From: Deltaproteobacteria bacterium
GTDB taxonomy: Bacteria > Desulfobacterota > Syntrophobacteria > BM002
Length of the DNA: 64,000 nucleotides
NCBI GenBank assembly: GCA_020353155.1
Contig: CP070689.1
Location: 3,105,299-3,169,298, forward strand
Direction: 5' to 3'
The position numbers were made by a program, and so were the translations under genes. Each line of letters begins with the position of its first letter. Positions within the stretch are counted from its first letter, which is position 1. Below are positions 2,631-59,147 of the stretch, piece by piece. The notes under the pieces were generated by a model that saw nothing but the letters and a program-made list of their open reading frames with translations, was not told the origin of the DNA and searched no databases.

Positions 2631-3416
2631 ATGAAAATCGCGACGTGGAATGTGAACTCCATACGGGTACGGCTGGAAGCAGTCTTGAACTGGATAGACC
2701 AAGAGCAGCCAGACGTTCTTTGCCTACAAGAAATAAAGGTAACAGATGAACTGTTTCCCGCCGAACCGTTTGAGGCTCTCGGCTATCAAATAGCCGTCAG
2801 CGGGCAAAAAACCTACAACGGGGTTGCCATCCTCAGCAGGTACGAGGTCACCGAGGTTCTGGCAGGATTCCCTGACTATGATGCCGAAGGGCAGAAACGG
2901 TTAATTGCCGCAACGGTGGGCCGGGTGAGGGTGGTGAACGTCTATGTTCCTAATGGTTCAGCTCCCGATTCCCCTAAGTTCATCTATAAGCTGGAATTCA
3001 TAAAGCAGCTAAGTAATTATATGGAACGGTTGCACCTAATTGGAGAGAACCTGGTTTTAGTTGGAGATTTTAACATCGCTCCCGAACCTCGCGACGTCTA
3101 TGATGCCAAAGAGATGGAAGGTGAGATTGGCTTTCACCCCGAAGAGCGGTCCGCCCTGGCAGAATTAAAGAATTGGGGATTTGAGGATGTCTTCCGCCGA
3201 CACCATGAGGAAGGTGGTCTTTATAGCTGGTGGGACTATCGGGCTGGCGCCTTCCGCCGTGACCTGGGTTTGAGGATCGATCACATCTGGGCTTCACCGC
3301 CCCTGGCTTGTCTAAGTCTGGAATGTTCCATGGACAAAAAGCAGCGTTCTCTGCCCAAGCCATCCGACCACATTCCCGTCTGGGCCATCTTCGATCTTAG
3401 TTGGCATAGGGCATAG
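2631..3416 (+). CDS. xth: exodeoxyribonuclease III
   Basis: MKIATWNVNSIRVRL...LCLQEIK...DHIW...SDHIPV are classic ExoIII/AP-endonuclease motifs. ATG at 2631 is preferred over the TTG at 2622 used by the track. Confidence 0.9.
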   Translation: MKIATWNVNSIRVRLEAVLNWIDQEQPDVLCLQEIKVTDELFPAEPFEALGYQIAVSGQKTYNGVAILSRYEVTEVLAGFPDYDAEGQKRLIAATVGRVRVVNVYVPNGSAPDSPKFIYKLEFIKQLSNYMERLHLIGENLVLVGDFNIAPEPRDVYDAKEMEGEIGFHPEERSALAELKNWGFEDVFRRHHEEGGLYSWWDYRAGAFRRDLGLRIDHIWASPPLACLSLECSMDKKQRSLPKPSDHIPVWAIFDLSWHRA

Positions 3417-3543
3417 AGCATGGAGCATAGAGTAAGGAGCCAGGTTTCAGTGTTCAGGTTTCAGCCTTTTTGTTTTTTTCCCTGACACCTGAAACCTGAC
3501 ACCGTGGAAATTGGTGCCTAGTGCTTAGTTCCTGGTGCCTAGT
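3404..3543. repeat. word-array hairpin (GCATAGAG array | CAGGTTTCAG array | T-rich loop | CTGAAACCTG array | GTGCCTAGTGC array)
   Basis: Arms at 3441-3464 and 3482-3502 are complementary, and the outer arms are tandem 8-mers. The first words overlap the last three codons and the TAG stop of xth. Confidence 0.7.
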
Positions 3544-9740: not shown

Positions 9741-9760
9741 GTGGAAAGGCATATTATGCT

Positions 9761-9902
9761 AGATGTGAGATGTGAGATGTGAGATATGGGATTGCAGATT
9801 TGGGAATAAAGAAATTGCGGGATTAGGGAATTGAGGAATTAGAAAATTAGCAGATAATGCTTCCTTTTTCTTAATCCCTGAATTCCAGAATTCCTTAATT
9901 TC
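9761..9902. repeat. word-array hairpin (GAGATGT x3, then GATTGCA/GATTTGG, then GGAATTG-type words | loop | complementary AATTCC-type words)
   Basis: 9761-9850 contains only 2 C in 90 nt, and 9861-9910 contains only 2 G in 50 nt (hand count). The words drift gradually from one family to the next. Confidence 0.75.
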
Positions 9903-9911
9903 TTTTAATTT

Positions 9912-10808: not shown

Positions 10809-10888
10809 CTCCCATCCTTTCGAGGATAAGTCACCGATATAGAAAGCTCACCCGTTAGCCGGGCGCTACAGGATAAAACGGCGTAAAC

Positions 10889-10975
10889 GCATAGGGCATA
10901 GAGCCAGCCTATTTCGGATTTCGGATTTTTATATTCGAAGTTCGAATTTTGGACTCCATGCTCCATGCCCTCTGC
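10889..10975. repeat. word-array hairpin (GCATAGGGCATAGAG | TTTCGGATTTCGGA | loop | TTCGAAGTTCGAAT | CTCCATGCTCCATGCCCTCTGC)
   Basis: Hand alignment of 10912-10925 against the reverse complement of 10934-10947 gives 10 Watson-Crick pairs, 3 G.U and 1 mismatch. The outer arms are complementary 8-mer arrays. It lies in a divergent promoter region. Confidence 0.7.
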
Positions 10976-11266
10976 CCATCAACAGAGAGATCAATATCAG
11001 AATAAGAAAACTCTTGCCCCTGTGTCAAGGCAGGTAAGATTTAAGGTCTGTAGACCACGAATAACCTGTCTTTTGCAAACCTTTTCGCTTGACAAGGGCT
11101 AAGGAAATCGGTAGAAAAGTACAGATTTATCTTGTGAAAAAAAGCTTAATATGGCGTGATCCTGGCTCCATTCCCCGGTGCGAGTTGCAGCCCGGGAAGC
11201 GCGATCTCGCTAGAGTGTCTCACCTTTCATTCCTTAAACCTACACTCCAAAATACCGAGGCGTTCC

Positions 11267-15036: not shown

Positions 15037-16269
15037 ATGGATTCAGCACTCATTCCCGAAGGGGTAAGACGTTGTTCTTTTAAAGCTTTTTGCCTTTGGC
15101 TGCTGGTGATATTCGCCGTAATCGGCTGGGGCGTATTGGGCGGTTTCCTGGTGCTGTGGAAGGGACTGAACGTTACCGGCCTGAACGATTATTTTGGCTT
15201 CGGCCTGTATATTACTGCAGACCTGGCAGTTATTGCTTTAGGGGCGGGAGCTTTTTTTACCGGCTTTCTTACTTATGTGATCGGTAAAAAGGAACTCAAA
15301 GATATTATCAACCTGGCCGTGGTCGTTGGGTTTATCTGCTATACTGGTGCTCAGCTGGTGTTACTCCTGGAAATTGGTCAGCCCATCCGCGGCTGGTTTT
15401 CCTTCTGGCACCCCAATGTTCACTCAATGCTCACAGAAGTGATCTTCTGCATCACCTGCTACACCATAGTGCTTACCATAGAGTTCCTACCTTTGATTCT
15501 TGAAAATCGACAATTGGACAAGGTGCCGGAATTCCACTTTTTCAGCCACAATCTCCACGAGATCATGGTGGTTTTTGCTGCAACGGGTACCTTTTTGAGC
15601 TTTTTTCACCAAGGCTCCCTGGGTGGTCTCTATGGTGTGATGTTTGCCCGGCCATTCGCCTTCCGTGAGGGATTTTTCATCTGGCCCTGGACCTTTTTCC
15701 TCTTTGTGGCATCGGCCATTGCTTCGGGCCCGGCCCTCACCATCCTGGTAACCATGATGGTACAGGGTATTACGCGGAAAAAACTAGTCCGTCGTGAGGC
15801 CATCTCTCTTCTGGCCAAGGTGACCGGCTACTTGCTTGCTTTTTATATGTTGGTCAAAATTCTCGACACTTGGTGGTGGGCGACTCACACGGCACCCAAT
15901 ATGGGAGTGAGTTTCAGCGAGTTCTTCCAGGCACCCTATGGATTATGGCTCCTTTTTGCCGAGATAGTAGTTTGCGGAATTATACCAGCCATCATCTTTC
16001 TCACGCCGAAAGCAAGGGCGGATGATGTCTTGCTCATTGTCGCCTGTGTACTGGACTGCGCCGGCATAGTCATAAATCGCTTCGTTTTTACCGTGCAGAA
16101 CTTAGCACTGCCGGTAATGCCCTTTGACCGTTTGGAAATTTATGTTCCCACCTGGCAGGAATGGGCACCTACTCTTGCCTTAATTGCCTATGGTGCCTTG
16201 ATAGTTTCACTTTCCTATCGATACCTGCCTGTGTTTCCAAGGGAGCGAGAGCTGAATCCTATTGATTGA
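15037..16269 (+). CDS. qrcD: NrfD/PsrC-family integral membrane quinone-interacting subunit (QrcD-like)
   Basis: 410 aa, highly hydrophobic with about 10 predicted TM segments. It is the last gene of the cytochrome/Mo-like/FeS/NrfD module. Confidence 0.75.
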   Translation: MDSALIPEGVRRCSFKAFCLWLLVIFAVIGWGVLGGFLVLWKGLNVTGLNDYFGFGLYITADLAVIALGAGAFFTGFLTYVIGKKELKDIINLAVVVGFICYTGAQLVLLLEIGQPIRGWFSFWHPNVHSMLTEVIFCITCYTIVLTIEFLPLILENRQLDKVPEFHFFSHNLHEIMVVFAATGTFLSFFHQGSLGGLYGVMFARPFAFREGFFIWPWTFFLFVASAIASGPALTILVTMMVQGITRKKLVRREAISLLAKVTGYLLAFYMLVKILDTWWWATHTAPNMGVSFSEFFQAPYGLWLLFAEIVVCGIIPAIIFLTPKARADDVLLIVACVLDCAGIVINRFVFTVQNLALPVMPFDRLEIYVPTWQEWAPTLALIAYGALIVSLSYRYLPVFPRERELNPID

Positions 16270-16297
16270 TCTTCTCTGAATAGAGATAGCGAAAAAG

Positions 16298-16327
16298 AAA
16301 AGCCCCGGATTTTCCGGGGCTTTTTTT
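16298..16327 (+). terminator. intrinsic terminator of the qrc-like operon
   Basis: GCCCCGG-ATTTT-CCGGGGC stem-loop (16302-16320) followed by T7 (16321-16327). Confidence 0.85.
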
Positions 16328-16344
16328 ATCCGCAAAGATTTTCA

Positions 16345-16593
16345 AGATGTGAGATATGAGATGTGCGATTTGAGATTGCGGATTTAGGATTGCAGATTGA
16401 TTGCCACATGGCACACAGCGCAGAGCGCATGATACATGACGGGAGGTCGGGCGAGACGAGCGAGACGGGATTAGTAGACGGCGGACATAAGTTACATAAT
16501 TTTGGATTTAGAATTGCGGAATCGGCTTTTTACTCTATGCCCTATGCTCTATGCCCCATGCGAAATCCCACATCCCACATCCCATATCATATC
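16345..16593. repeat. large nested word-array hairpin (GAGATGT | GATTGCGGATTT | CATGGCAC/GCGCAGAG ... centre ... GGATTTAGAATTGCGG | CTCTATGCCCTATGC | CCCACATCCCACATC)
   Basis: Outer left arm 16345-16375 is complementary to 16565-16593. Segment 16407-16431 is partly complementary to 16534-16560. The right end abuts the nadB stop codon. Confidence 0.75.
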
Positions 16594-18229
16594 AGGTCCA
16601 TTGATCCAGGCGGATTATGGTGTCCCGTTGCCAGCGCTCGTCGTCCTTCTGGGGGTGGTCGACGTTAAAATGAAGGCCCCGGCTTTCGCGACGCTTGAGA
16701 GCACAGGTCACGATCAACTCCGCAACGGTGGCCAGATTTCTCAGTTCGATGAGATCACTGTTTAGGCTGATATTGGGGTAGTGTTCGTTGATTTCTCGCT
16801 GCACCTGGGCCAGGTGATTTTGTGCCAGGTTTAACCGGCTGTCTTTACGGACGATGCCCACGTAGTTCCACATAAGGCGACGAATTATGTCCCAGTTGTA
16901 GGCTATGAGCACCATTTCGCTATCGTTGGCATTAAGTGGCATCTCCAAAGGAGGAACTTCTGGGAGAGAGATCTTTTTTCTCGGGGACAGGGGTTCGCTG
17001 TTAATCTGTTCAGCTGCTTTATGGGAAAAAACCAGGGCTTCAAGGAGGGAATTGCTGGCCAGCCGGTTGGCACCGTGAAGCCCGGTACAGGCAGATTCAC
17101 CCAAAGTATAAAGATGCTGGATGCTCGTGCGTCCATGCTTGTCAGTGCGCACTCCACCGCATATGTAGTGGGCTGCTGGCACCACAGGTATGGGCTCTTT
17201 GGTAAGGTCGATGCCAAGGGAAAAACATTTGTCATAAATACCGGGAAAACGCTGTCGCAGGAAATCAGCGTCCCGATGACTGATGTCAAGATAAACACAA
17301 TCGTCCCCACTCTGTTTGATCTCAGTGTCAATCGCGCGAGCCACTATATCTCGGCAAGCCAGATCCTTTAGGGGGTGGTATTTGGACATGAAGGCCTGTC
17401 CACGTTTGTCTATCAGCCGCCCCCCTTCTCCCCTTACCGCCTCTGAGATGAGGAAGTTTTTTGCGTGGGGGTGATAAAGACAGGTAGGGTGAAACTGGAC
17501 AAATTCCATATTTGCAACTTCTGCTCCTGCTCGGTAGGCCATGGCCACACCGTCACCGGTGGCCACATCAGGGTTGCTGGTGTAAACGTATACCTTGCCG
17601 GCACCGCCTGTGCACAATAGGGTATCCTTGGCCAGGAAGGTCAGGATACGATTTCCCTCGATATCCAGAACGTAAGCACCCCAGCACCTTTCCTGCCGCT
17701 GGGTGGTCAGCAACCCCCTTTTGAGCAGCTGACATTCGACGATCAAGTCGATGGCAATGTGATTTTCAAAAATAGAAATGTTGGGGTGCTGCTCGGCCAT
17801 GGAGACCAAGACTCGTTCCACTTCTCTGCCAGTCATATCCTGGGCGTGGACTATCCTGCTGCGAGAGTGACCCCCCTCGCGAGCTAAATCGAAGGGCACG
17901 GATTCCTGCTGTCCTCGCTGGAAGCGCACACCCATTTCGGCCAACTCCCTAATGCGGTCAGGGCCACCTTTAATCACCATGGCCACCACATCGGGATGAC
18001 AGAGCCCATCACCAGAGCTCAAGGTATCCTGAATGTGTAGATCGAAAGAATCCTCGGGGCCAAGCACCGAGGCAATCCCACCTTGGGCATAATTGGTGCT
18101 GGTTTCTACACTTTCCTTCTTGGTCACCACTGCGACCTTGCGGGTTGATGCTACCTTAAGGGCGAAAGTGAGACCAGCGATCCCGCTCCCAACCACCAGG
18201 GTATCGAATTCCATTATGTCAGTTGTCAT
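16592..18229 (-). CDS. nadB: L-aspartate oxidase
   Basis: 545 aa. FAD-binding DTLVVGSGIAGL, and succinate-dehydrogenase/fumarate-reductase flavoprotein-like motifs (GGIASV, HPTCL, GEGG). Confidence 0.9.
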   Translation of the reverse strand: MTTDIMEFDTLVVGSGIAGLTFALKVASTRKVAVVTKKESVETSTNYAQGGIASVLGPEDSFDLHIQDTLSSGDGLCHPDVVAMVIKGGPDRIRELAEMGVRFQRGQQESVPFDLAREGGHSRSRIVHAQDMTGREVERVLVSMAEQHPNISIFENHIAIDLIVECQLLKRGLLTTQRQERCWGAYVLDIEGNRILTFLAKDTLLCTGGAGKVYVYTSNPDVATGDGVAMAYRAGAEVANMEFVQFHPTCLYHPHAKNFLISEAVRGEGGRLIDKRGQAFMSKYHPLKDLACRDIVARAIDTEIKQSGDDCVYLDISHRDADFLRQRFPGIYDKCFSLGIDLTKEPIPVVPAAHYICGGVRTDKHGRTSIQHLYTLGESACTGLHGANRLASNSLLEALVFSHKAAEQINSEPLSPRKKISLPEVPPLEMPLNANDSEMVLIAYNWDIIRRLMWNYVGIVRKDSRLNLAQNHLAQVQREINEHYPNISLNSDLIELRNLATVAELIVTCALKRRESRGLHFNVDHPQKDDERWQRDTIIRLDQWT

Positions 18230-18387
18230 TTTTCATCTCGCATTTCGCCTACTTGGGTAGGACCAATATAGTAGGCTTATATTAAAATTATAAATCATAA
18301 CTTAAAAATGAAAAATGCGAAACTGGGAACCCGCTTGCGGGACTGAGCGGAGCAAAGCGAGCGCGAAGAAATGAAAAATGCGAAATG
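18227..18387. repeat. word arrays (CATTTTCATCTCGCATTTCGCC, and two 17-nt direct copies of AAATGAAAAATGCGAAA) flanking a GC-rich core hairpin
   Basis: The direct copies lie at about 18306-18322 and 18369-18385. The core is ctGGGAACCCGCttGCGGGACtgagcgg. The first word contains the nadB start codon. Confidence 0.7.
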
Positions 18388-19404: not shown

Positions 19405-19428
19405 GGTGGGCACCGCCGTTCTATAACC

Positions 19429-19493
19429 AGGCACTAAGCACTAAGCACATTTTAATTTCACATTTTTCATTGCGCATTTCTCATTTTACATTT
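19429..19493. repeat. word arrays (GCACTAAG x2, then CATTTTTCATTGCGCATTTCTCATTTTACATTT)
   Basis: Two different word families are juxtaposed with no local complementary partner. The element lies between the HAD gene and the 19507 gene. Confidence 0.6.
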
Positions 19494-19506
19494 GAAATTG
19501 GGTGAA

Positions 19507-20250
19507 ATGCCGGACAAAGAACTACTTTTAATAGGTACGGTCCATAGGGATCCTGATGGCCCGGTCAAGCTGAGAAAGCTTCTGGCAGAAGAGCGCCCAG
19601 TAGCACTGGCAGTGGAGGTTAGTCCCTATGGGCTTTTCTACAGAAGAAGAAACTTCCGCCAATTGCGAAGGCGTCTTGTAAGAAGAGTAAAGAGGTTGGC
19701 TCTGGAGCTTGAGGTTTCCTGGCGAGACTGGGGACAGATCAATGCCATACAGCTTCAACTCGCAGTGCCCTTCGAATACCGCATGGGCCAGAAATATTGC
19801 CGAGATTCCGGTGCTGCACTCGCTTGCATAGACTCTTCGCTCTGGAGCAAAGAATGGATACATAAGCATTGGCAACTATTGCTAAGCAGCGAGAATCTCG
19901 AGGCCCTGCTGCAATGCTCTCCTGAGACACTTTCAAAAGAGGTTGCAAGGGAATACAAGATTGCCGCATTTCTCCTGAGCGAGAAAGATCAGTCATTTGC
20001 TTCAGCTTTCACTGGAACCTTTTATGCTGACTCCCGATGGCAGCAGCGAGAGGTAGAATTAGCACAAGTTCTAGAGGAAACTTACGCTCGAGTCCACGAG
20101 GGGCGAGTGGCCTATGTGGGAGGCTGGCAGCACTTGCTTCGCCCAAATAGTGGTGGCACTCTATATGATCGTCTTAAACATTTACAGCCCCGAAGAATTT
20201 TGCTCAATGACACCACTGGAGCAGGAAGAAGAGCACAATCAGCGAAGTAG
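19507..20250 (+). CDS. hypothetical protein, weakly TraB/GumN-like
   Basis: ORF with an ATG at 19507. N-terminal LLLIGTVHRDP and C-terminal VAYVGGWQHL resemble the GTxH...GxxH pattern of TraB/GumN proteins. The similarity is weak. Confidence 0.5.
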   Translation: MPDKELLLIGTVHRDPDGPVKLRKLLAEERPVALAVEVSPYGLFYRRRNFRQLRRRLVRRVKRLALELEVSWRDWGQINAIQLQLAVPFEYRMGQKYCRDSGAALACIDSSLWSKEWIHKHWQLLLSSENLEALLQCSPETLSKEVAREYKIAAFLLSEKDQSFASAFTGTFYADSRWQQREVELAQVLEETYARVHEGRVAYVGGWQHLLRPNSGGTLYDRLKHLQPRRILLNDTTGAGRRAQSAK

Positions 20251-20388: not shown

Positions 20389-20663
20389 CCCTTGGTCGTG
20401 CTAGATGGGGAGTTAGCGGTGCCCTGTAACCCGAAATCCGCTTATGCGGGATTGAATTCCCTGCAGAGAGTTACAGTTAGACCGGGGCCTGTCTGTGCTT
20501 GTTGCTGATTGGACACCGCGCAACAAACGGATACGAACCCCGTCAGGTCCGGGAGGAAGCAGCGGTAAGTATTGCAGTTTGTGTCGTGGTTACCTCTGAT
20601 CAGAGCTGCAACGCGGACGGTCCATGGGAAAGCTGAGCCCGAAGTGGGGTGCACGACCAAGGG
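20389..20663 (+). ncRNA. ffs: signal recognition particle RNA, long (Alu-domain-containing, Bacillus/archaeal-like) type
   Basis: Domain IV motif GTCAGGTCCGGGAGGAAGCAGCGGTAAG at about 20543-20570. 5' Alu-like motifs GGTGCCCTGTAACCC and GATTGAATTCC. A perfect 13-bp terminal helix joins 20389-20401 (cccttggtcgtgc) and 20651-20663 (gcacgaccaaggg). Confidence 0.85.
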
Positions 20664-20706: not shown

Positions 20707-21096
20707 TTATTCCTCAAGGTTCAAAACTAACCTGCGTATTCCTTTCCTAAGAACTTTTACATTAAAATTAAGCAATAATCCGACTTGGCAGCCGGAAAGC
20801 TTTAGATATGACAACAGCTGTGCCTCGTGTATCGGCTGCAATCTATCAACTGTCTTTAGCTCCACTATCACTTGTCCCTCTACAAGCAAATCCAACCGAT
20901 ACCCGCAGTCGAGTTTAACGCCTCTGTATCGCACTGGCATCGCCTTTTGTTGTTCCACCGCCAACCGACGTTCGGCCAGTTCGAAAGCCAGGCATGCCTC
21001 GTAGGCCGACTCCAACAAACCAGGCCCTAGTGCTTTGTGAACAGCCATCGCTGCACCGATGATAGCCTCTGTAATGGTATTTATATCTTTTGCCAT
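20707..21096 (-). CDS. GxxExxY-family protein (PD-(D/E)XK nuclease-like fold)
   Basis: 129 aa. [13 protein letters not shown] (GxxExxY), then D...E.K-like [16 protein letters not shown], and the typical C-terminal [19 protein letters not shown]. Confidence 0.85.
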
Positions 21097-22645: not shown

Positions 22646-22661
22646 AGCGTTTCCAAGAAGA

Positions 22662-22800
22662 GTCCGTTGTCAGTTGTCAGTTGGGTAAAAAAGAGAGCGA
22701 ATTGGGTGTGGAGCGCTAAAAAAAATGAGATGAATTCTTCTTAACGCGTCATCTCGTGGACATTAAGGGCAACTGACCACGGACCATGGACAACTTACCC
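22662..22800. repeat. complementary word tracts (GTCAGTTG / GTCCGT / GGGTAA versus CAACTGAC / ACGGAC / TTACCC)
   Basis: The left tract (22662-22688) and right tract (22768-22800) share complementary words. Their order is not that of a simple hairpin, so only local stems of 8-10 bp are supported. Confidence 0.45.
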
Positions 22801-22990
22801 GCGGATGGCGTAGGACGTACCAGATTCACACCAGGTCGTCAAGGATAAATGGCTTTTTTTATTGATGGAAGAGGAAATCGACAGACCAATGTCGCCCTCT
22901 CCGACTTGCAGCCGCTTGTAGTTTATGTTAGATATCCAAGCTGATTGGCAAGAAGAAGGAATAAGGAAAACCAAGTATGGCGCATGGGGA

Positions 22991-23054
22991 GGAAATTGCG
23001 AATTTCAAACTTAGAAATTAGGAATATTGGAACTCTATGCCCTATGCTCTTTGC
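22991..23054. repeat. word arrays (GGAAATTGCGAATTTC / GAAATTAGGAATATTGG, then CTCTATGCCCTATGCTCT)
   Basis: The same word families as at 9800-9850 and 16534-16560. It lies upstream of yjbQ. Confidence 0.6.
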
Positions 23055-23093
23055 CAACTGAGGGAATTGAGAAGCCAAGCGAGTTGAGAGATA

Positions 23094-27115: not shown

Positions 27116-27449
27116 GAGCGAACTGAGCATTGTCTTGGTGGATGATGACCAGATGAGTTCGCTTAACGAGAAGTACAGAAACCGCCAAGGCACTACCAAT
27201 GTTCTAGCCTTTGCAATGCGTGAGGGAGAGTTTGGTGAAATCTCCCCAGAACTTCTCGGCGACGTTATAATTTCCCTTCCCACAGCCCAGCGGGAGGCCG
27301 AAGAGGCGGGCATTTCCCTCGACAGCATGATCTCTCGTCTTTTAATTCATGGTATTTTACACCTAGTGGGTTTCGAGCACGATCGAGGCGAGGATGCAGC
27401 CCGAGAAATGGAACAGCGAAGCTCCGAACTGCTAGCGATAATCGATTAA
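27015..27449 (+). CDS. ybeY: rRNA maturation endoribonuclease YbeY
   Basis: ELSIVLVDDDQM...TNVLAF and the metal site HGILHLVGFEHD. ATG at 27015 gives a normal-length N-terminus (MEIQVNDQ...) but overlaps the upstream gene by 101 nt. Confidence 0.85.
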   Translation: MEIQVNDQQNEIATELEKIKTKARKILNALACYESELSIVLVDDDQMSSLNEKYRNRQGTTNVLAFAMREGEFGEISPELLGDVIISLPTAQREAEEAGISLDSMISRLLIHGILHLVGFEHDRGEDAAREMEQRSSELLAIID

Positions 27450-27486
27450 CACTGTCCGTTTTAGAAAACGCATAGCGCCTATAAAA

Positions 27487-27656
27487 CTAGGCACTAGGCA
27501 GTAAGCACTAAGCACTACAACTCGGAACGAAGAGCGGGGAACGCTGAATTATGGACAAAACTGATTGAAATTTCCAATGTCGAAACATTCCGAGTTTCTC
27601 GTTCCGAATTCCGCTTTATTTCCCTTGGTGTCTAGTCCCTAGTGCATAGTGCCTAG
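27487..27656. repeat. word-array hairpin (GCACTAGG/GCACTAAG array | CGGAAnn array | centre | complementary TTCCG array | CCTAGTGC array)
   Basis: Hand alignment of the outer 32 nt (27487-27518 against the reverse complement of 27625-27656) gives 24 Watson-Crick pairs, 2 G.U and 6 mismatches. The inner arms are complementary tandem CGGAA words. Confidence 0.8.
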
Positions 27657-27717
27657 TGAGGACGGCTCTGTGCTCTAAGCGTCTTTGAAACACAAACACT
27701 GATTGGAGGTGAGAGGC

Positions 27718-28461
27718 GTGGCTAAGTTGGCAGTGAATGTGGATCATGTGGCTACATTACGGGAAGCGCGCCGAACGGCAGAACCTGACCCGGTAACCGC
27801 CGCGGCCTTGGCCGAACTCGCGGGCGCCCAAGGAATCGTCGTGCACTTGCGCGAAGATAGGCGGCATATTCAGGATCGTGATCTACACCTTCTCAGACAG
27901 ACGGTGAAGACCAAATTGAACCTGGAGATGACTGCAACGCAAGAAATGCTTAAGACAGCTTTGAGCGTGAAGCCAGACATGGTCACCCTGGTGCCTGAGA
28001 GAAGGGAGGAACTCACAACTGAAGGCGGTCTAGAGGTTCAGCTCAATAGGGAAAATCTGAAGAAGTACGTTAGACTGTTTAAGGACGCTGACATCATAGT
28101 AAGCCTTGTGATCAACCCCGACCTGGATCAGATAAAGGCGGCCCAGTGGGTAGAGGCGGATTATATCGAAGTGCACGCAGGTTCTTTTTGTGAAGCCCGG
28201 ACACTTACCGAAAGGCAAGAAGAATTTGACCGGATCCAAAACGCGGTAAAACTGGCCCATAAAGTAGGACTGGGGGTAAATGTAGGTCACAGATTGGATC
28301 ATAGTAATATCGGTTGGTTGGTGGACGTTGCTGAAATCGAAGAGTTTGTTATTGGCCACGCCATTGTTGCTCGGGCGGTTCTGGTTGGCTTTGAACGAGC
28401 TGTTCGCGAAATGGTAGAGTTAATCAACTGGGGCGCTGGTTGGCGGCGGACTGGCCCATGA
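27718..28461 (+). CDS. pdxJ: pyridoxine 5'-phosphate synthase
   Basis: LAVNVDHVATLREARR and EVHAG motifs. GTG at 27718 follows the GGAGGTGAG RBS; the track starts at TTG 27703. Confidence 0.9.
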   Translation: MAKLAVNVDHVATLREARRTAEPDPVTAAALAELAGAQGIVVHLREDRRHIQDRDLHLLRQTVKTKLNLEMTATQEMLKTALSVKPDMVTLVPERREELTTEGGLEVQLNRENLKKYVRLFKDADIIVSLVINPDLDQIKAAQWVEADYIEVHAGSFCEARTLTERQEEFDRIQNAVKLAHKVGLGVNVGHRLDHSNIGWLVDVAEIEEFVIGHAIVARAVLVGFERAVREMVELINWGAGWRRTGP

Positions 28462-30412: not shown

Positions 30413-30545
30413 GTCATTTCCCATTTTGCATTGCCCATTTCTCATTTAACATTTCTCATCAATGTGAATTTGGACAGATGACTCTTGTACTGAGTTGATA
30501 ATGATAAATGATGAATGACCAATGAGAAATGAGAAATGAGAAATG
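30413..30545. repeat. word-array hairpin (CATTTCTC-type array | centre | GAGAAATG-type array)
   Basis: The left arm 30413-30460 has 3 G in 48 nt. The right arm 30498-30545 has 2 C in 48 nt. The period-7 array AATGAGA x3 contains the tsaE start codon. Confidence 0.8.
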
Positions 30546-31048
30546 AACAACCTCTCCTAAGGTGGACTACCCAGACATTAAGCCCTGAAGCAACTCAGTC
30601 TCTTGCCGAGCGACTGGGAAGATTGCTCCGGCCAGGTGATGTAGTTGCCTTGATAGGTGAGTTAGGAAGCGGTAAAACCGTTTTCTCTCAAGGCCTGGCT
30701 CGCGGCTTGGGGGTGCCGAAGACTTTCTATATTACCAGCCCAACCTTTGCCATCATAAACGAGTATCCTGGTAGAGTCCCCTTTTATCATCTGGATTTAT
30801 ATCGAGTGAGCGGTCCTGGCGAGTTGTCAGAACTGGGACTTGAGGAAATTCTTTACGGGCAAGGGGCAGTGGCAATTGAATGGGCTGAAAGACTAGACAA
30901 AGAATTGCCAGCGGAGCGGCTGGAAGTCCACTTGACATTTCTGAACGAAATGGGAAGAAATATTGCCTTCTCTGCATTTGGAGACAAATTAGAAAAGCGA
31001 CTGGCCACACTCGTCAGCTTTTATAAAAGCGCCAACGAGAGAAGCTAA
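30536..31048 (+). CDS. tsaE: tRNA t6A37 biosynthesis ATPase TsaE
   Basis: GELGSGKT Walker A, SPTFAIINEY, and YHLDLYR motifs. Confidence 0.9.
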   Translation: MRNEQPLLRWTTQTLSPEATQSLAERLGRLLRPGDVVALIGELGSGKTVFSQGLARGLGVPKTFYITSPTFAIINEYPGRVPFYHLDLYRVSGPGELSELGLEEILYGQGAVAIEWAERLDKELPAERLEVHLTFLNEMGRNIAFSAFGDKLEKRLATLVSFYKSANERS

Positions 31049-31078: not shown

Positions 31079-31155
31079 GATGTGAGATAGTTTTTTGCAA
31101 AGGTGTTCCAGCAGATTGTCAGTACCTCCCATCCCACATCCCATATCTCACATCT
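31079..31155. repeat. word-array hairpin remnant (GATGTGAGATA ... CCCATCCCACATCCCATATCTCACATC)
   Basis: A short G-rich left arm and a longer complementary right array. Confidence 0.6.
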
Positions 31156-32595: not shown

Positions 32596-32674
32596 AGATG
32601 TGGGATGTGAGATTTGAGATGCGTGATGGTTAATTTTCCAAAAAAATGTTAAATCCCATATCGCACATCTCACA
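32596..32674. repeat. word-array hairpin (GATGTGGGATGTGAGATTTGAGATGCGTGATGG | loop | AAATCCCATATCGCACATCTCAC)
   Basis: Complementary GAGATGT/ACATCTC arrays lie directly after the lysC stop. Confidence 0.7.
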
Positions 32675-32787
32675 GCTAACTCGAATTTATTTGGTCCGCC
32701 TCCGGCGGAATGATATGCGGATTACATAACGTTGTTGGTATAACAAACATCCAGTCGATAATAAAACTCGAAAAATAGGAAAGACAT

Positions 32788-34443: not shown

Positions 34444-35025
34444 ATGAATTTTCTTTCCCGGTCTCAACCCGGCGCTGTTTTATTGGTGGCACTCGTTCTG
34501 CTGTCTGTCTACAGCTTGAGTCACCATACCCAGCATGGCAAGTCGAGAAAATCCACTGAAGTCTCCGCGAAATACATCTTTATCCAGGTGGTGGGCAAGG
34601 TAAAAAGTCCGGGGATATACTGCTTCGATCAAGGGGTTACAGTAGGTGAGGCGTTAGCTCGGGCTGGAGGACCACTGTCATCGTTAAGTCACGGCGACGA
34701 ATTGACATGGGCTAAAGTTCAAACACTAAACGGCAGCAGAATTCAAATTATAACTGAGCCAAGGGGAGTCGCCGTTTTGAAATTGGGGTGGATGGCGGTG
34801 CCCATCCGCCTGGCTTTAGGGGTGCCACTGGATATCAATCAGGCCTCTGTAGCTGATTTGACCCAAGTGCCTGGCATCAATGACGAGTTGGCGGATAGGA
34901 TTGTGGCTCTGAGGGTACGTAGGGGGGGATTCTCCAAATTAGATAGTCTTTGCGAGGTAAAGGGTATAGGGCCGGCCACGGTCAGGCGGCTCAAGCCCTA
35001 CCTTGCACTAGGCACTAAGCACTAG
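34444..35025 (+). CDS. comEA: ComEA-family helix-hairpin-helix DNA-binding protein
   Basis: Signal/anchor, SLBB-like region, and C-terminal HhH pair (INQASVADLTQVPGI...VKGIGPATVRRL). Confidence 0.85.
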   Translation: MNFLSRSQPGAVLLVALVLLSVYSLSHHTQHGKSRKSTEVSAKYIFIQVVGKVKSPGIYCFDQGVTVGEALARAGGPLSSLSHGDELTWAKVQTLNGSRIQIITEPRGVAVLKLGWMAVPIRLALGVPLDINQASVADLTQVPGINDELADRIVALRVRRGGFSKLDSLCEVKGIGPATVRRLKPYLALGTKH

Positions 35026-35073
35026 GCACCATGCACCGCGGAGCAGGCAGCGAGCAGCGGACAGCAGGCAGTA
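35005..35073. repeat. word arrays (GCACTAGG/GCACTAAG x3, then GCAGGCAG/GAGCAGCG-type words)
   Basis: The first 21 nt encode the last six residues (ALGTKH) and the TAG stop of comEA. No local complementary arm. Confidence 0.65.
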
Positions 35074-37447: not shown

Positions 37448-37602
37448 TTTCTCATTTGTCATTGCGCATTTGTCATTGCGCATTTATCATTACACATCGC
37501 AAATGATTTTGCTGATGTCGTTCTAATTAAATTCGCAATCCGAAATCGGGAACCCGCCCGAAGGGTGGGAGTCCGAAGGACAAATTCAGAATTCACAATT
37601 GC
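37448..37602. repeat. word arrays (CATTTGTCATTGCGCATT x2-3; AATCCGAAAT / AATTCAGAATTCACAATTGC) flanking a GC-rich core hairpin
   Basis: The core is cgaaatcGGGAACCCGCCCgaaGGGTGGGAGTCCgaagg at 37541-37580. It shares the 10-mer GGGAACCCGC with 18325-18334. Confidence 0.7.
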
Positions 37603-37631
37603 AGAAACAATGGATATTTAGAGGGAAACCG

Positions 37632-38702: not shown

Positions 38703-38710
38703 TAGGAAGA

Positions 38711-38741
38711 ACTAGGCAATAAGGACTAAACACTAGGCACC
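38711..38741. repeat. short word array (ACTAGGCA ATAAGGACTAAACACTAGGCAC)
   Basis: Degenerate GCACTAAG-family words between tsaD and the SDR gene. Confidence 0.5.
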
Positions 38742-39754: not shown

Positions 39755-39779
39755 CCCCCCTTCCTTGGCGGAAGGGGGG
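39755..39779. terminator. bidirectional intrinsic terminator
   Basis: A 10-bp GC-rich stem, CCCCCCTTCC (39755-39764) with GGAAGGGGGG (39770-39779). It is flanked by an A-run upstream and TGTTTCTT downstream, between convergent genes. Confidence 0.8.
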
Positions 39780-59018: not shown

Positions 59019-59147
59019 ATGGGTGATTGGCGATGGGTAATGGGGCATAGGTAGTGGATTATGGGATGTCTCTTACCTATTACCTAACGCGACGCTATTC
59101 TTTATGCTTTTAAAAATCCGCCATCCGAATTCCACAATCCGAAATCT
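59019..59147. repeat. word arrays (GGGTGATTGGCGATGGGTAATGGGG... versus CTTACCTATTACCTAAC; then AAATCCGCCATCCGAATTCCACAATCCGAAATC)
   Basis: A C-poor left tract, a complementary right tract, then an AATCCG-family array. It lies between the VWA gene and the FAD-oxidoreductase operon. Confidence 0.6.

Follow-up and report, generated by a model that had tools for sequence, protein, structure and literature searches.

An excess of heptamer repeats in the intergenic DNA of bacteria has been noted since 1990 and, to our knowledge, has never been explained. In cyanobacteria, intergenic heptanucleotide tandem repeats, i.e., the STRR, were reportedly described by Mazel and colleagues in that year. A different kind of extragenic repeat, the repetitive extragenic palindromic (REP) element, is a unit palindrome of 20–40 nt with a conserved GTAG or CGTC tag, which is mobilised by the Y1 transposase RAYT. 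Here, a 64,000-nt stretch of a Deltaproteobacteria bacterium genome (contig CP070689.1), called the window below, was analysed for arrays of short degenerate words lying in the spacers between its genes, with the ybeY–pdxJ spacer as the exemplar locus. The existence of these intergenic word arrays is confirmed, with corrections to an earlier sequence-only reading of the same DNA, the interpretation of which is partly supported. The arrays are built on a strict 7-nt unit, mostly stand in inverted pairs that can nest into layered palindromes, and differ between close relatives by whole units and by word family.

Heptamer simple sequence repeats are over-represented in many bacterial genomes, for which polymerase slippage has been proposed (Mrazek 2007, as relayed in PMC4692102). 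In Xanthomonas, about 185 (GGGAATC)n arrays were reported, and 70–75 cases per genome are convergent inverted pairs able to form stem-loops (PMC4692102). The (GGGAATC)n arrays keep their sites from one species to another but differ in length, and either strand of them can be transcribed (Rehm et al. 2015, PMC4692102). For TAACTGA, direct repeats are described from Beggiatoaceae, cyanobacteria and Bacteroidetes, in many cases immediately ahead of a start codon (MacGregor 2015, PMC4679880), and in BOGUAY a single inverted repeat was found among 170 sets (PMC4679880). The work on Geobacter metallireducens (PMC2700814) describes three classes of opposite-strand paired sites consisting of 3–5 tandem octa-, nona- and heptanucleotide units (24, 21 and 8 pairs), some of which belong to two classes at once. 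According to the same work, the paired sites are absent from G. sulfurreducens and were read as sites for IHF/HU or a global regulator, and the genome also holds 49 (GGACCGG)4 elements. In Nostoc, deletion of heptamer repeats alters the expression of recF and recO reporters (bioRxiv 10.1101/2022.06.06.494920). A literature search for array strings of GCACTAG, one of the words found here, returned no paper containing them.

The sequence-only reading held that spacers between 1 and 39.7 kb of the window carry runs of degenerate short words with a period of 7–9 nt, followed by runs of the complementary word. Such runs are found in 15 of the 23 spacers of at least 50 nt in that segment, in tandem, convergent and divergent contexts as had been claimed, against 0–1 of the 13 spacers in 39.7–64 kb. 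The period, however, is strictly 7 nt, the 8-mers of that reading being a heptamer plus one base. Tandem Repeats Finder (TRF) gave a period of 7, or the doubled 14, at nearly all of the listed loci, and an autocorrelation scan over periods 3–15 detected arrays at 7 and 14 only, covering 369 nt of non-coding vs. 57 nt of coding DNA. At a looser threshold, 30 period-7 arrays were counted, 26 of which are non-coding, compared with an average of 1.64 and at most 4 in block shuffles; in this looser scan the matches at periods 5 and 6 were mostly coding and those at periods 8–11 almost absent. The family words are 2–7 times denser in non-coding than in coding DNA, as the same reading would have it, and the dispersed repeats within the window are heptamer arrays and nothing else. 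At the gathering threshold, the Rfam search of the window returned only a signal recognition particle (SRP) RNA, and at E ≤ 0.5 it returned nothing at the arrays, which match no Rfam family.

About eight word families recur, with the following variants:
GCACTAG, varying to GCACTAA
GCATAGA, varying to GCATGGA
AGATGTG, varying to GGATGTG
GAAATGA, varying to CATTTCN (other strand)
CGGATTT, varying to CGGAATT and GGAATTG
GTCCGTT, varying to GTCAGTT
CAGGTTT
GCAGGCA

In the usual layout, an array on one side of the spacer faces its reverse-complement array on the other side, and pairs of different families are nested, giving a long imperfect layered palindrome. Opposite-strand pairs of one word within a spacer are found at 27487/27632, 10889/10955, 16345/16569, 32596/32664, 18226/18368, 30435/30526 and 22662/22771. 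The families are combined differently from spacer to spacer, so that the mosaic order of modules described by the sequence-only reading stands. A hairpin build had also been claimed for the listed loci. Most of them are indeed two-armed, and 11 of the 15 array-bearing spacers fold with a whole-spacer z below −2 on one or both strands, the strongest being 16270–16591 (z −3.1 / −5.8), 10809–11155 (−4.2 / −2.5) and 30413–30535 (−2.6 / −4.5). About a third of the listed loci, however, are one-armed arrays without a hairpin, and folding against shuffles gave no significant hairpin at the one-sided arrays 19429–19493, 22991–23054, 35005–35073, 38711–38741 and 59019–59147. At 22657–22803 the arms are complementary, yet z is only −1.1. 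Because the hairpins fold on both strands, the palindromy lies at the DNA level.

The exemplar spacer lies between the ybeY stop at 27449 and the pdxJ start at 27718 (with GGAGGTG upstream), both genes being on the + strand. Its layers, named by letters, were mapped with the help of contigs carrying pdxJ relatives, which are numbered L001–L018 and upward (L103, L110 and L125 are instead GCACTAR loci elsewhere in bacteria):
27470–27680, no strand: the whole nested imperfect palindrome, of which the minimum free energy (MFE) structure is a single long hairpin of roughly 200 nt
27453–27460, + strand: remnant of layer S (GTCCGTT family), the outermost layer, whose right-side partner is lost in the window
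27470–27476, + strand: left arm of layer H, GCATAGC (GCATAGA family), grown to 2–4 units in L002 and L016
27487–27518, + strand: left arm of layer K, CTAGGCA CTAGGCA GTAAGCA CTAAGCA CTAC (GCACTAG family; TRF period 7, 4.6 copies, 88% matches)
27523–27543, + strand: left arm of layer E, a degenerate CGGAAC/GGGAAC array read from the sequence, pairing with 27588–27613 in the MFE structure
27544–27587, no strand: unique centre, the loop region of the MFE structure
27588–27613, − strand: right arm of layer E (ATTCCGAG ... GTTCCGAATTCCG), from the MFE structure and the layer map
27629–27656, − strand: right arm of layer K, TGTCTAG TCCCTAG TGCATAG TGCCTAG (TRF)
27665–27680, − strand: right arm of layer H (GCTCTGTGCTCTAAGC), from the layer map

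On the + strand, 27470–27690 folds at −74.7 kcal/mol, compared with −54.7 ± 4.6 in dinucleotide shuffles (z −4.31), and on the − strand z is −3.66; on either strand, 0 of 200 shuffles folded as well, and the exemplar thus withstood the shuffled-control check that the sequence-only reading had set for it. A recount of the arm 27487–27518 against the reverse complement of 27625–27656 reproduced its hand count exactly, i.e., 24 Watson–Crick pairs, 2 G.U pairs and 6 mismatches. The balance of G.U pairs to A.C mismatches in the exemplar is 2:2. That reading had further proposed that the inner arms pair in several registers. This is correct, and the outer arms do likewise: the complementarity of the K arms is 0.75–0.80 in each in-phase register from −14 to +14, and the other hairpins of the window behave alike. 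Such equal complementarity across registers indicates that there is no unit-specific covariation, and the arms resemble each other at the level of the family consensus only.

Comparison of orthologous spacers shows how the arrays change. The related contigs, which keep the synteny around pdxJ, were obtained from sediment metagenomes of estuarine and marine origin; the closest named PdxJ relatives, at 97–98% identity, are labelled 'MAG: Syntrophobacterales bacterium'. Heptamer arrays occur at 1–9 per 10 kb in contigs with PdxJ at least 82% identical, and more distant contigs are at background. As positive controls, the same array scan found TAACTGA (L050) and CCCCAGT (L043, L046, L052, L064) in distant pdxJ loci from other metagenomes, the latter being the classic cyanobacterial STRR1 heptamer.

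Sites tend to retain an array while its word family changes, even between 97% relatives. The lysC–cimA spacer has AGATGTG arms in the window and AAATCCG/AAAATTC arms in L006, in which the flanking proteins are 96–97% identical; in L015 it holds direct arrays of GGCACTA, GCGGATT and GCTGATC, and in L017 it is empty (76 nt). Similarly, the ybeY–pdxJ spacer contains a hairpin (GTGAACG)3 ... (GTTTACC)4 in L002, L003 and L007 (95–97%), is a simple 78-nt hairpin spacer in L004 and L011 (85–86%), and has nothing comparable in L005 (80%). Filled and empty sites were compared (L017 vs. L004, L014 and L015; L004 and L011 vs. the window), and neither a target duplication nor defined ends were seen in these comparisons. 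Between relatives, indels of 7 nt (n = 18) and 14 nt (n = 12) outnumber those of 8 nt (n = 8), 13 nt (n = 2) and 15 nt (n = 3), a spectrum to be taken as a pattern rather than a formal test because the compared pairs are phylogenetically redundant; among the closest pairs, nearly every long indel measures 7, 14 or 42 nt. At the exemplar itself, the left and right K arms have 4 and 4 units in the window and 5 and 3 in L006, and layer H measures 22 nt in L002 vs. 15 nt in L007. Gain and loss of 7- and 14-nt units point to slipped-strand mispairing or unequal exchange.

The layers of the exemplar can be ordered across the clade, from outside to inside:
Window and L006: S (GTCCGTT), H (GCATAGA), K (GCACTAG), E (CGGAATT), unique centre
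L002, L007 and L016: S, H, V (GTAAACG), centre
L010, L012–L015, L017 and L018: S arms of 3–4 units around a 222-nt unique single-copy sequence

Layer S is intact, with 3–4 units on each side, in L010, L012 and L017; L002, L006 and L007 have its right arm. The outer layers, which are the older ones, are thus common to more distant relatives and the interiors differ, suggesting that the centre of the palindrome is the entry or replacement point for new material. The centre 27544–27587 is strongly diverged between the window and L006 despite 97% identical PdxJ. The 222-nt sequence (L010:5729–5950, L012:573–795, L013/L014:5740–5957, L015:4749–4970, L017:5736–5957, L018:1160–1390) is 81–95% conserved, changing roughly as fast as the genes on either side of it. 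It was also considered as a mobile element or structured RNA, and both were rejected: it is single-copy, Rfam gave no match, and compensatory change in 2 of 59 predicted pairs is unconvincing.

A scan for (GCACTAR)3 in one genome per GTDB species returned at least 119 stretches, compared with about 2 expected at random. The matches listed fall in Gemmatimonadota, Planctomycetota, Acidobacteriota, Bacteroidota, candidate phyla radiation (CPR) phyla, Proteobacteria, cyanobacteria and an archaeon, and include isolate genomes and genomes of 70–75% G+C. Among these listed matches, 80 loci were read, 19 of which have an inverted partner array within 600 nt, and several of the inverted pairs enclose arrays of other families, e.g., GGACTCA units in L103 and L125. 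The hairpins of GCACTAG pairs elsewhere are much cleaner than those of the window, with z of −7 to −9, and at the Hymenobacter locus L110 irregular units are mirrored in both arms, register 0 reaching 0.86 vs. 0.68–0.73 in the other registers. The idea that GCACTAG is a special pan-bacterial word was rejected: in a viral collection, the permuted controls GACTCAR and CGAACTR gave 29 and 10 arrays, compared with 13 for GCACTAR, 8 for RGATGTG and 27 for GCATRGA, although GACTCAR is an imperfect control, being itself arrayed in Longimicrobium. Since permuted words are arrayed about as often, the generating process appears to be independent of the word. What can be maintained is that tandem heptamers of arbitrary sequence are widespread and often stand in inverted pairs. 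A polarity bias of the GCACTAG inverted pairs in other phyla (17 reverse-complement..forward vs. 3 forward..reverse-complement by loci, about 10 vs. 2 by genomes) was likewise set aside as not significant; the clade of the window carries the minority polarity, forward..reverse-complement.

The remaining array loci of the window are as follows; lines without a strand are unstranded, and z values are those of the spacer folds:
1993–2144: GCACTAG array on the left, inner GAAGTCG / CTGACTT arrays, reverse-complement GCATGGA array on the right (spacer z −2.8 / −2.0)
2497–2584: CAGGAGN array and its complement (array scan)
3401–3543: GCATAGA array, CAGGTTT array, T-rich centre, CCTGACA array and reverse-complement GCACTAG array, in a convergent spacer (TRF)
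9755–9904: perfect (AGATGTG)3 passing into GGATTGC / AGATTTG / GGAATTAG units, of which the inner part alone is complemented (CTTAATTC) (TRF; family D1)
10889–10977: GCATAGG/GCATAGA, two ATTTCGG, centre, two CTCCATG, in a divergent spacer (z −4.2 / −2.5)
16344–16593: the largest composite, layers AGATGTG, GATTGCG and GCAGAGC with complements, in the convergent qrcD/nadB spacer (spacer z −3.1 / −5.8)
18216–18387: CATTTTT/CATTTCG on the left, AAAAATG / GAAATG arrays on the right (z −1.2 / −2.3)
19425–19495, + strand: one-armed, (GCACTAA)2 and then a CATTTNN array reaching the start of the next open reading frame (ORF); unstructured (z −0.3 / +0.8)
22660–22796: GTCCGTT GTCAGTT GTCAGTT on the left, CAACTGA CCACGGA CCATGGA on the right (fold z −1.1, not significant)
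22991–23055: one-armed, GGAAATT-type units and then a reverse-complement GCATAGA array (array scan)
30414–30546: (CATTTCN)6 on the left and (NGAAATG)7 on the right, the right arm holding the tsaE ATG (TRF; z −4.25)
31079–31155: short GATGTGAGATAG left arm and CCCATCCCACATCCCATATCTCACATCT right arm (TRF)
32596–32680: AGATGTG/GGATGTG array, A/T-rich centre and complement (z −4.47, 0 of 200 shuffles as good); at the orthologous site L006 has other families and L017 none (76 nt)
35003–35073, + strand: one-armed, (GCACTAG)4 and then GCAGGCA/GCAGCGA units (TRF)
37448–37606: (CATTTGTCATTGCG)2.8 on the left, CGCAATCCGAAATC and AATTCAG units on the right, in a divergent spacer (TRF period 14, 96% matches; z −2.5 / −1.4)
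38710–38741, + strand: short one-armed array of the GCACTAG family (family D3)
59019–59147: weak degenerate AAATCCG-type array, the sole candidate of the second half (TRF 61% matches, score 31; spacer z +0.9 / +1.1)

The locus last listed had been named by the sequence-only reading as a further hairpin array at 59.0–59.15 kb; a weak array is there, but it is one-sided and lacks a significant hairpin. A 14-nt super-period made of two alternating variants is frequent, e.g., in the left array of 37448–37606 (96% identity by TRF), and words can grade along an array, as in AGATGTG → AGATATG → GGATTGC → AGATTTG → GGAATTA at 9761–9848 and 16345–16398. Ordered blocks of units recur between loci (blocks D1 and D2): the unit order of 19425–19495 resembles that of 30420–30454, with 31 of 35 positions matching by eye (block D2). 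In the window and its relatives, the forward word of AGATGTG, GCATAGA, GCACTAG, GTCCGTT and GTAAACG stands in the left arm and that of GAAATGA in the right, and CGGATTT is mixed. One fixed polarity per word family is suggestive only, because the independent loci are few. Arrays orthologous to 22660–22796 are present in L004, L010, L014, L016 and L017.

Six genomes share the yjeF–tsaE hairpin (CATTTCN)n ... (NGAAATG)n, the most distant at about 80% protein identity (relatives L004, L006, L010, L012 and L017), with the tsaE ATG inside the (GAAATGN)n right arm at 30526–30546 of the window and a start region of atgagaaatgaa or atgcgaaatgaa across the clade; this hairpin could occlude the translation start of tsaE. 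A comEA-like ORF (34444–35025, HHH_3/SLBB) ends in the GCACTAG array 35003–35037, whose three leading units encode the C-terminal residues A L G T K H (the final six codons) and contribute the TAG stop.

We read these elements, at roughly an even chance of being right, as hypermutable DNA-level heptanucleotide arrays of the STRR type that are set in inverted pairs and evolve by 7-nt slippage and by copying into palindrome centres, their REP-like RNA hairpins being a by-product. The arrays do not read as a set of sequence-specific functional sites. Slipped-strand mispairing would make and remodel the arrays, and new or replacement layers would be copied from other loci into or near the centre of an existing palindrome by ectopic recombination, template switching, centre-break repair of hairpin-forming DNA or some mobilising enzyme. 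The first three of these routes are established palindrome processes. Selection would presumably keep the arrays out of coding regions, as a 7-nt unit throws a gene out of frame and stop codons occur in many of the words, and the low-GC accessory half of the window may lack arrays because it arrived recently. When transcribed, the elements would form register-tolerant hairpins between cistrons or in 3′ untranslated regions (3′-UTRs) that could act, as REP elements do, as an exonuclease barrier, as an RNase III substrate or, at tsaE, by occluding the start site. Such RNA-level effects are plausible at some sites, probably as a side effect or a secondary co-option rather than as the reason the elements exist.

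This reading draws on the period-7 structure and intergenic confinement, the folds on both strands, the indel spectrum, the family swaps, the empty sites and the onion-like layer map, together with the register independence, the recurring unit order, the contrast between the two halves of the window (15/23 vs. 0–1/13 spacers), the occurrence in unrelated phyla and the permuted controls. Several points count against it. Slippage alone leaves unexplained why the same few families recur at many loci and why each family has a fixed polarity, although for the latter the numbers are small and CGGATTT is mixed. Any mechanism that sets a symmetric pair of arrays around an older core would be hypothetical. 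In the window the innermost layer E is the most degenerate and K the most regular, which misfits a simple rule that the innermost layer is the youngest. The yjeF–tsaE hairpin, including the tsaE start codon, is conserved over relatives of about 80% identity, a hint of function at some sites. Finally, the DNA analysed covers 64 kb of this genome.

The nesting itself could instead come from mobility. If whole array–centre–array units were non-autonomous mobile palindromes of a REPIN- or MITE-like kind, copied preferably into hairpin centres or loops by an enzyme encoded elsewhere in the genome and acting in trans, e.g., a hairpin-specific HUH/Y1 transposase, then nested layers with younger, variable interiors at one orthologous site, a whole K+E composite standing in the place of V in 95–97% relatives, polarity fixed within families, ordered blocks of variant units common to different loci and the mirrored irregular units at L110 would all find an explanation; the G. 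metallireducens study also places insertion sequence (IS) elements at a fixed distance from comparable paired sites (PMC2700814). We consider this doubtful, since the 64-kb window holds no transposase or RAYT gene, the copies are alike at family level only (65–90%) and have no defined ends, the filled-vs.-empty comparisons gave no target-site duplication, one-armed arrays are common and array lengths are continuous. A further reading, which we hold to be distinctly unlikely, is that layered heptamer-array palindromes are a widespread, unrecognised class of self-propagating bacterial DNA that grows by repeated insertion into hairpin centres through dedicated 7-nt-register machinery. The same word and the same nesting here and in Gemmatimonadota, Planctomycetota, Acidobacteriota and Bacteroidota would mark its scope, each family would be a lineage of fixed polarity, and the machinery might be a hairpin-specific nuclease or transposase or a polymerase-associated activity.

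Selection on the transcript is rather unlikely as the primary cause. On this account, the elements would be cis-acting RNA structures, i.e., REP-like intercistronic or 3′-UTR hairpins which might set differential mRNA stability or termination within housekeeping operons, or start occlusion, the tandem words giving tolerance to slippage. The significant fold z-scores, the placement between co-directional genes of conserved operons (phoH–HD–ybeY / pdxJ–acpS–nnr / tsaE), the occupancy of sites conserved across the clade, the tsaE start codon in the 3′ arm of a conserved hairpin and the altered recF and recO expression in Nostoc (bioRxiv 10.1101/2022.06.06.494920) all agree with it. However, strand asymmetry, considered as a sign of RNA-level selection, gave no signal, as only 4 of 7 co-directional spacers fold better on the sense strand and G.U and A.C are balanced in the exemplar; no single register is maintained, some orthologous sites are empty, divergent spacers carry arrays too, about a third of the arrays are one-armed and U-tails are absent. 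A regular period and a paired layout like that of operator pairs would also suit arrays to which nucleoid-associated proteins or global regulators bind, each 7-nt unit or each 21 nt (two helical turns) taking one protein. Such partners were proposed for the G. metallireducens paired sites (IHF/HU, PMC2700814) and speculated on in Nostoc (bioRxiv 10.1101/2022.06.06.494920). With at least eight unrelated word families in one genome, degenerate units, families swapped at a fixed site between 97% relatives, dispensable sites and no candidate protein, protein binding is very unlikely to account for the arrays. The chance that they are random or an assembly artefact is next to nil: short-read assemblies do break at repeats, as L001 does 22 nt before pdxJ, but 30 arrays stand against 1.64 in shuffles, the same elements recur in independent assemblies of different samples (L002, L003, L006 and L007), and comparable arrays are found in isolate genomes of other phyla.

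The window (G+C about 49%, coding share 86%) encodes a QrcABCD-type menaquinone reductase, nadB, yidC–rnpA–jag–mnmE–rsmG, phoH–HD–ybeY, pdxJ–acpS–nnr, tsaE, lysC, cimA, moaA and tsaD. Together with its PdxJ relatives and the sediment contigs, this places it in an uncultured, sulfate-reducer-type lineage of the Desulfobacterota. Its segment 39.7–64 kb, with G+C of 0.43–0.47 in places and accessory genes (LuxR, methyltransferases, UvdE, MFS, DUF1295, CFA synthase, amine oxidase), may on these features be a recently acquired island. At its boundary, 39755–39779, lies a perfect 10-bp G+C-rich terminator-like hairpin (CCCCCCTTCC...GGAAGGGGGG), the sole clear bidirectional terminator and one outside the arrays. 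The bacterial SRP RNA, of the large (Alu-domain) type, lies at 20396–20656 (152 bits in Rfam), and L004 has one too. In the window it is flanked by a 252-amino-acid ORF without a Pfam match (19492–20250) and a PDDEXK_3 nuclease-family gene (20707–21096), neither of which has a counterpart at the orthologous position of L004, where HAD, the SRP RNA and MazG are separated by short spacers; from this comparison, both genes look like lineage-specific insertions. Just upstream of the 16345 array, 16258–16343 gives a sub-threshold Rfam match to the Brucella sRNA BSnc120 (27.7 bits vs. a gathering score of 114, E 0.02), which is almost certainly due to chance. The ybeY of L006 is 48 nt shorter in its 3′ part (about 560–610) than that of the window, and the lost stretch encodes the HGxLHLxGxxH metal-binding motif, so that the L006 gene is either a pseudogene or has lost the stretch in the assembly of its contig.

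This clade is informative because many word families coexist in one genome and nested layers can be dated against relatives, and because in close metagenomic relatives the same positions reveal slippage by units, replacement of families and empty sites. The origin of the arrays, the choice of a 7-nt unit and the importance of the arrays to the cell thus become directly testable. Arrays can give stop or start codons to adjoining genes. As a practical consequence, they appear to break the short-read assemblies of this lineage: pdxJ-bearing contigs of near relatives are mostly shorter than 10 kb, and L001 (Logan contig SRR35494107_98818), the sole public contig with an identical PdxJ, begins directly past the right arm of the exemplar.

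The sequence-only reading had set the arrays apart from simple terminators and from REP/BIME, MITE and CRISPR elements, and this separation holds. Unlike intrinsic terminators, the array hairpins have no U-tract (T-tail in the DNA), and a scan for terminator-like sites found 25, compared with 20.1 ± 4.8 in shuffles. CRISPR consists of identical 24–48-nt repeats with unique spacers of similar length, whereas the units here are 7 nt long and contiguous, with no regular spacers. The arrays also differ from MITEs in lacking terminal inverted repeats, a target-site duplication and a uniform length, their lengths varying continuously. REP, BIME and REPIN elements come closer, being likewise extragenic, palindromic and mosaic, placed in tandem and convergent spacers and able to fold in mRNA, with plausibly similar consequences at mRNA ends; the arms here, however, are 7-nt tandem words pairing in several registers, without a 20–40-nt unit palindrome or tag.

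The further claim that the architecture was undescribed does not hold, given the precedents in cyanobacteria, in the (GGGAATC)n pairs of Xanthomonas and in the paired sites of G. metallireducens. With the STRR and TAACTGA repeats, the window shares a 7-nt unit in at least three head-to-tail copies, an intergenic position, several families per genome, arrays that abut start codons and whole-unit changes in copy number between relatives, and its GTCAGTT (AACTGAC) is one base off a rotation of TAACTGA. Those repeats were described as direct, with the inverted arrangement rare, and in other hosts; a QrcB-type menaquinone reductase and Syntrophobacterales relatives place the window outside the cyanobacteria, to which STRR in the strict sense belong. 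As in Xanthomonas, intergenic heptamer arrays of the same word stand on opposite strands in convergent pairs at variable distance, and the site is kept while length and sequence vary. The Xanthomonas arrays, in contrast, are one G-rich family with G-quadruplex potential whose pairs are neither nested nor mosaic; at least eight families are present here, and none of the window families has G3 tracts repeated in phase, as the G-quadruplex subtype of Xanthomonas and Nostoc does. In G. metallireducens (Aklujkar et al., PMC2700814), as described, the words are GTTGCTYN, TCTCCGTS[Y], MTYCTGA and GGACCGG, the units are mostly 8–9 nt as opposed to strictly 7 nt here, and nesting and comparative turnover are not part of that description. 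The G. metallireducens sites nevertheless match those of the window in a host from broadly the same phylum, in 3–5 intergenic tandem copies of a 7–9-nt word, in opposite-strand pairs at variable distance (one of them between the co-directional proB and proA), and in several lineage-specific classes per genome with two-class, i.e., mosaic, sites. Set beside these systems, and as far as was found, what appears to be new in the window is the number of word families, the layered nesting and the comparative evidence for turnover.

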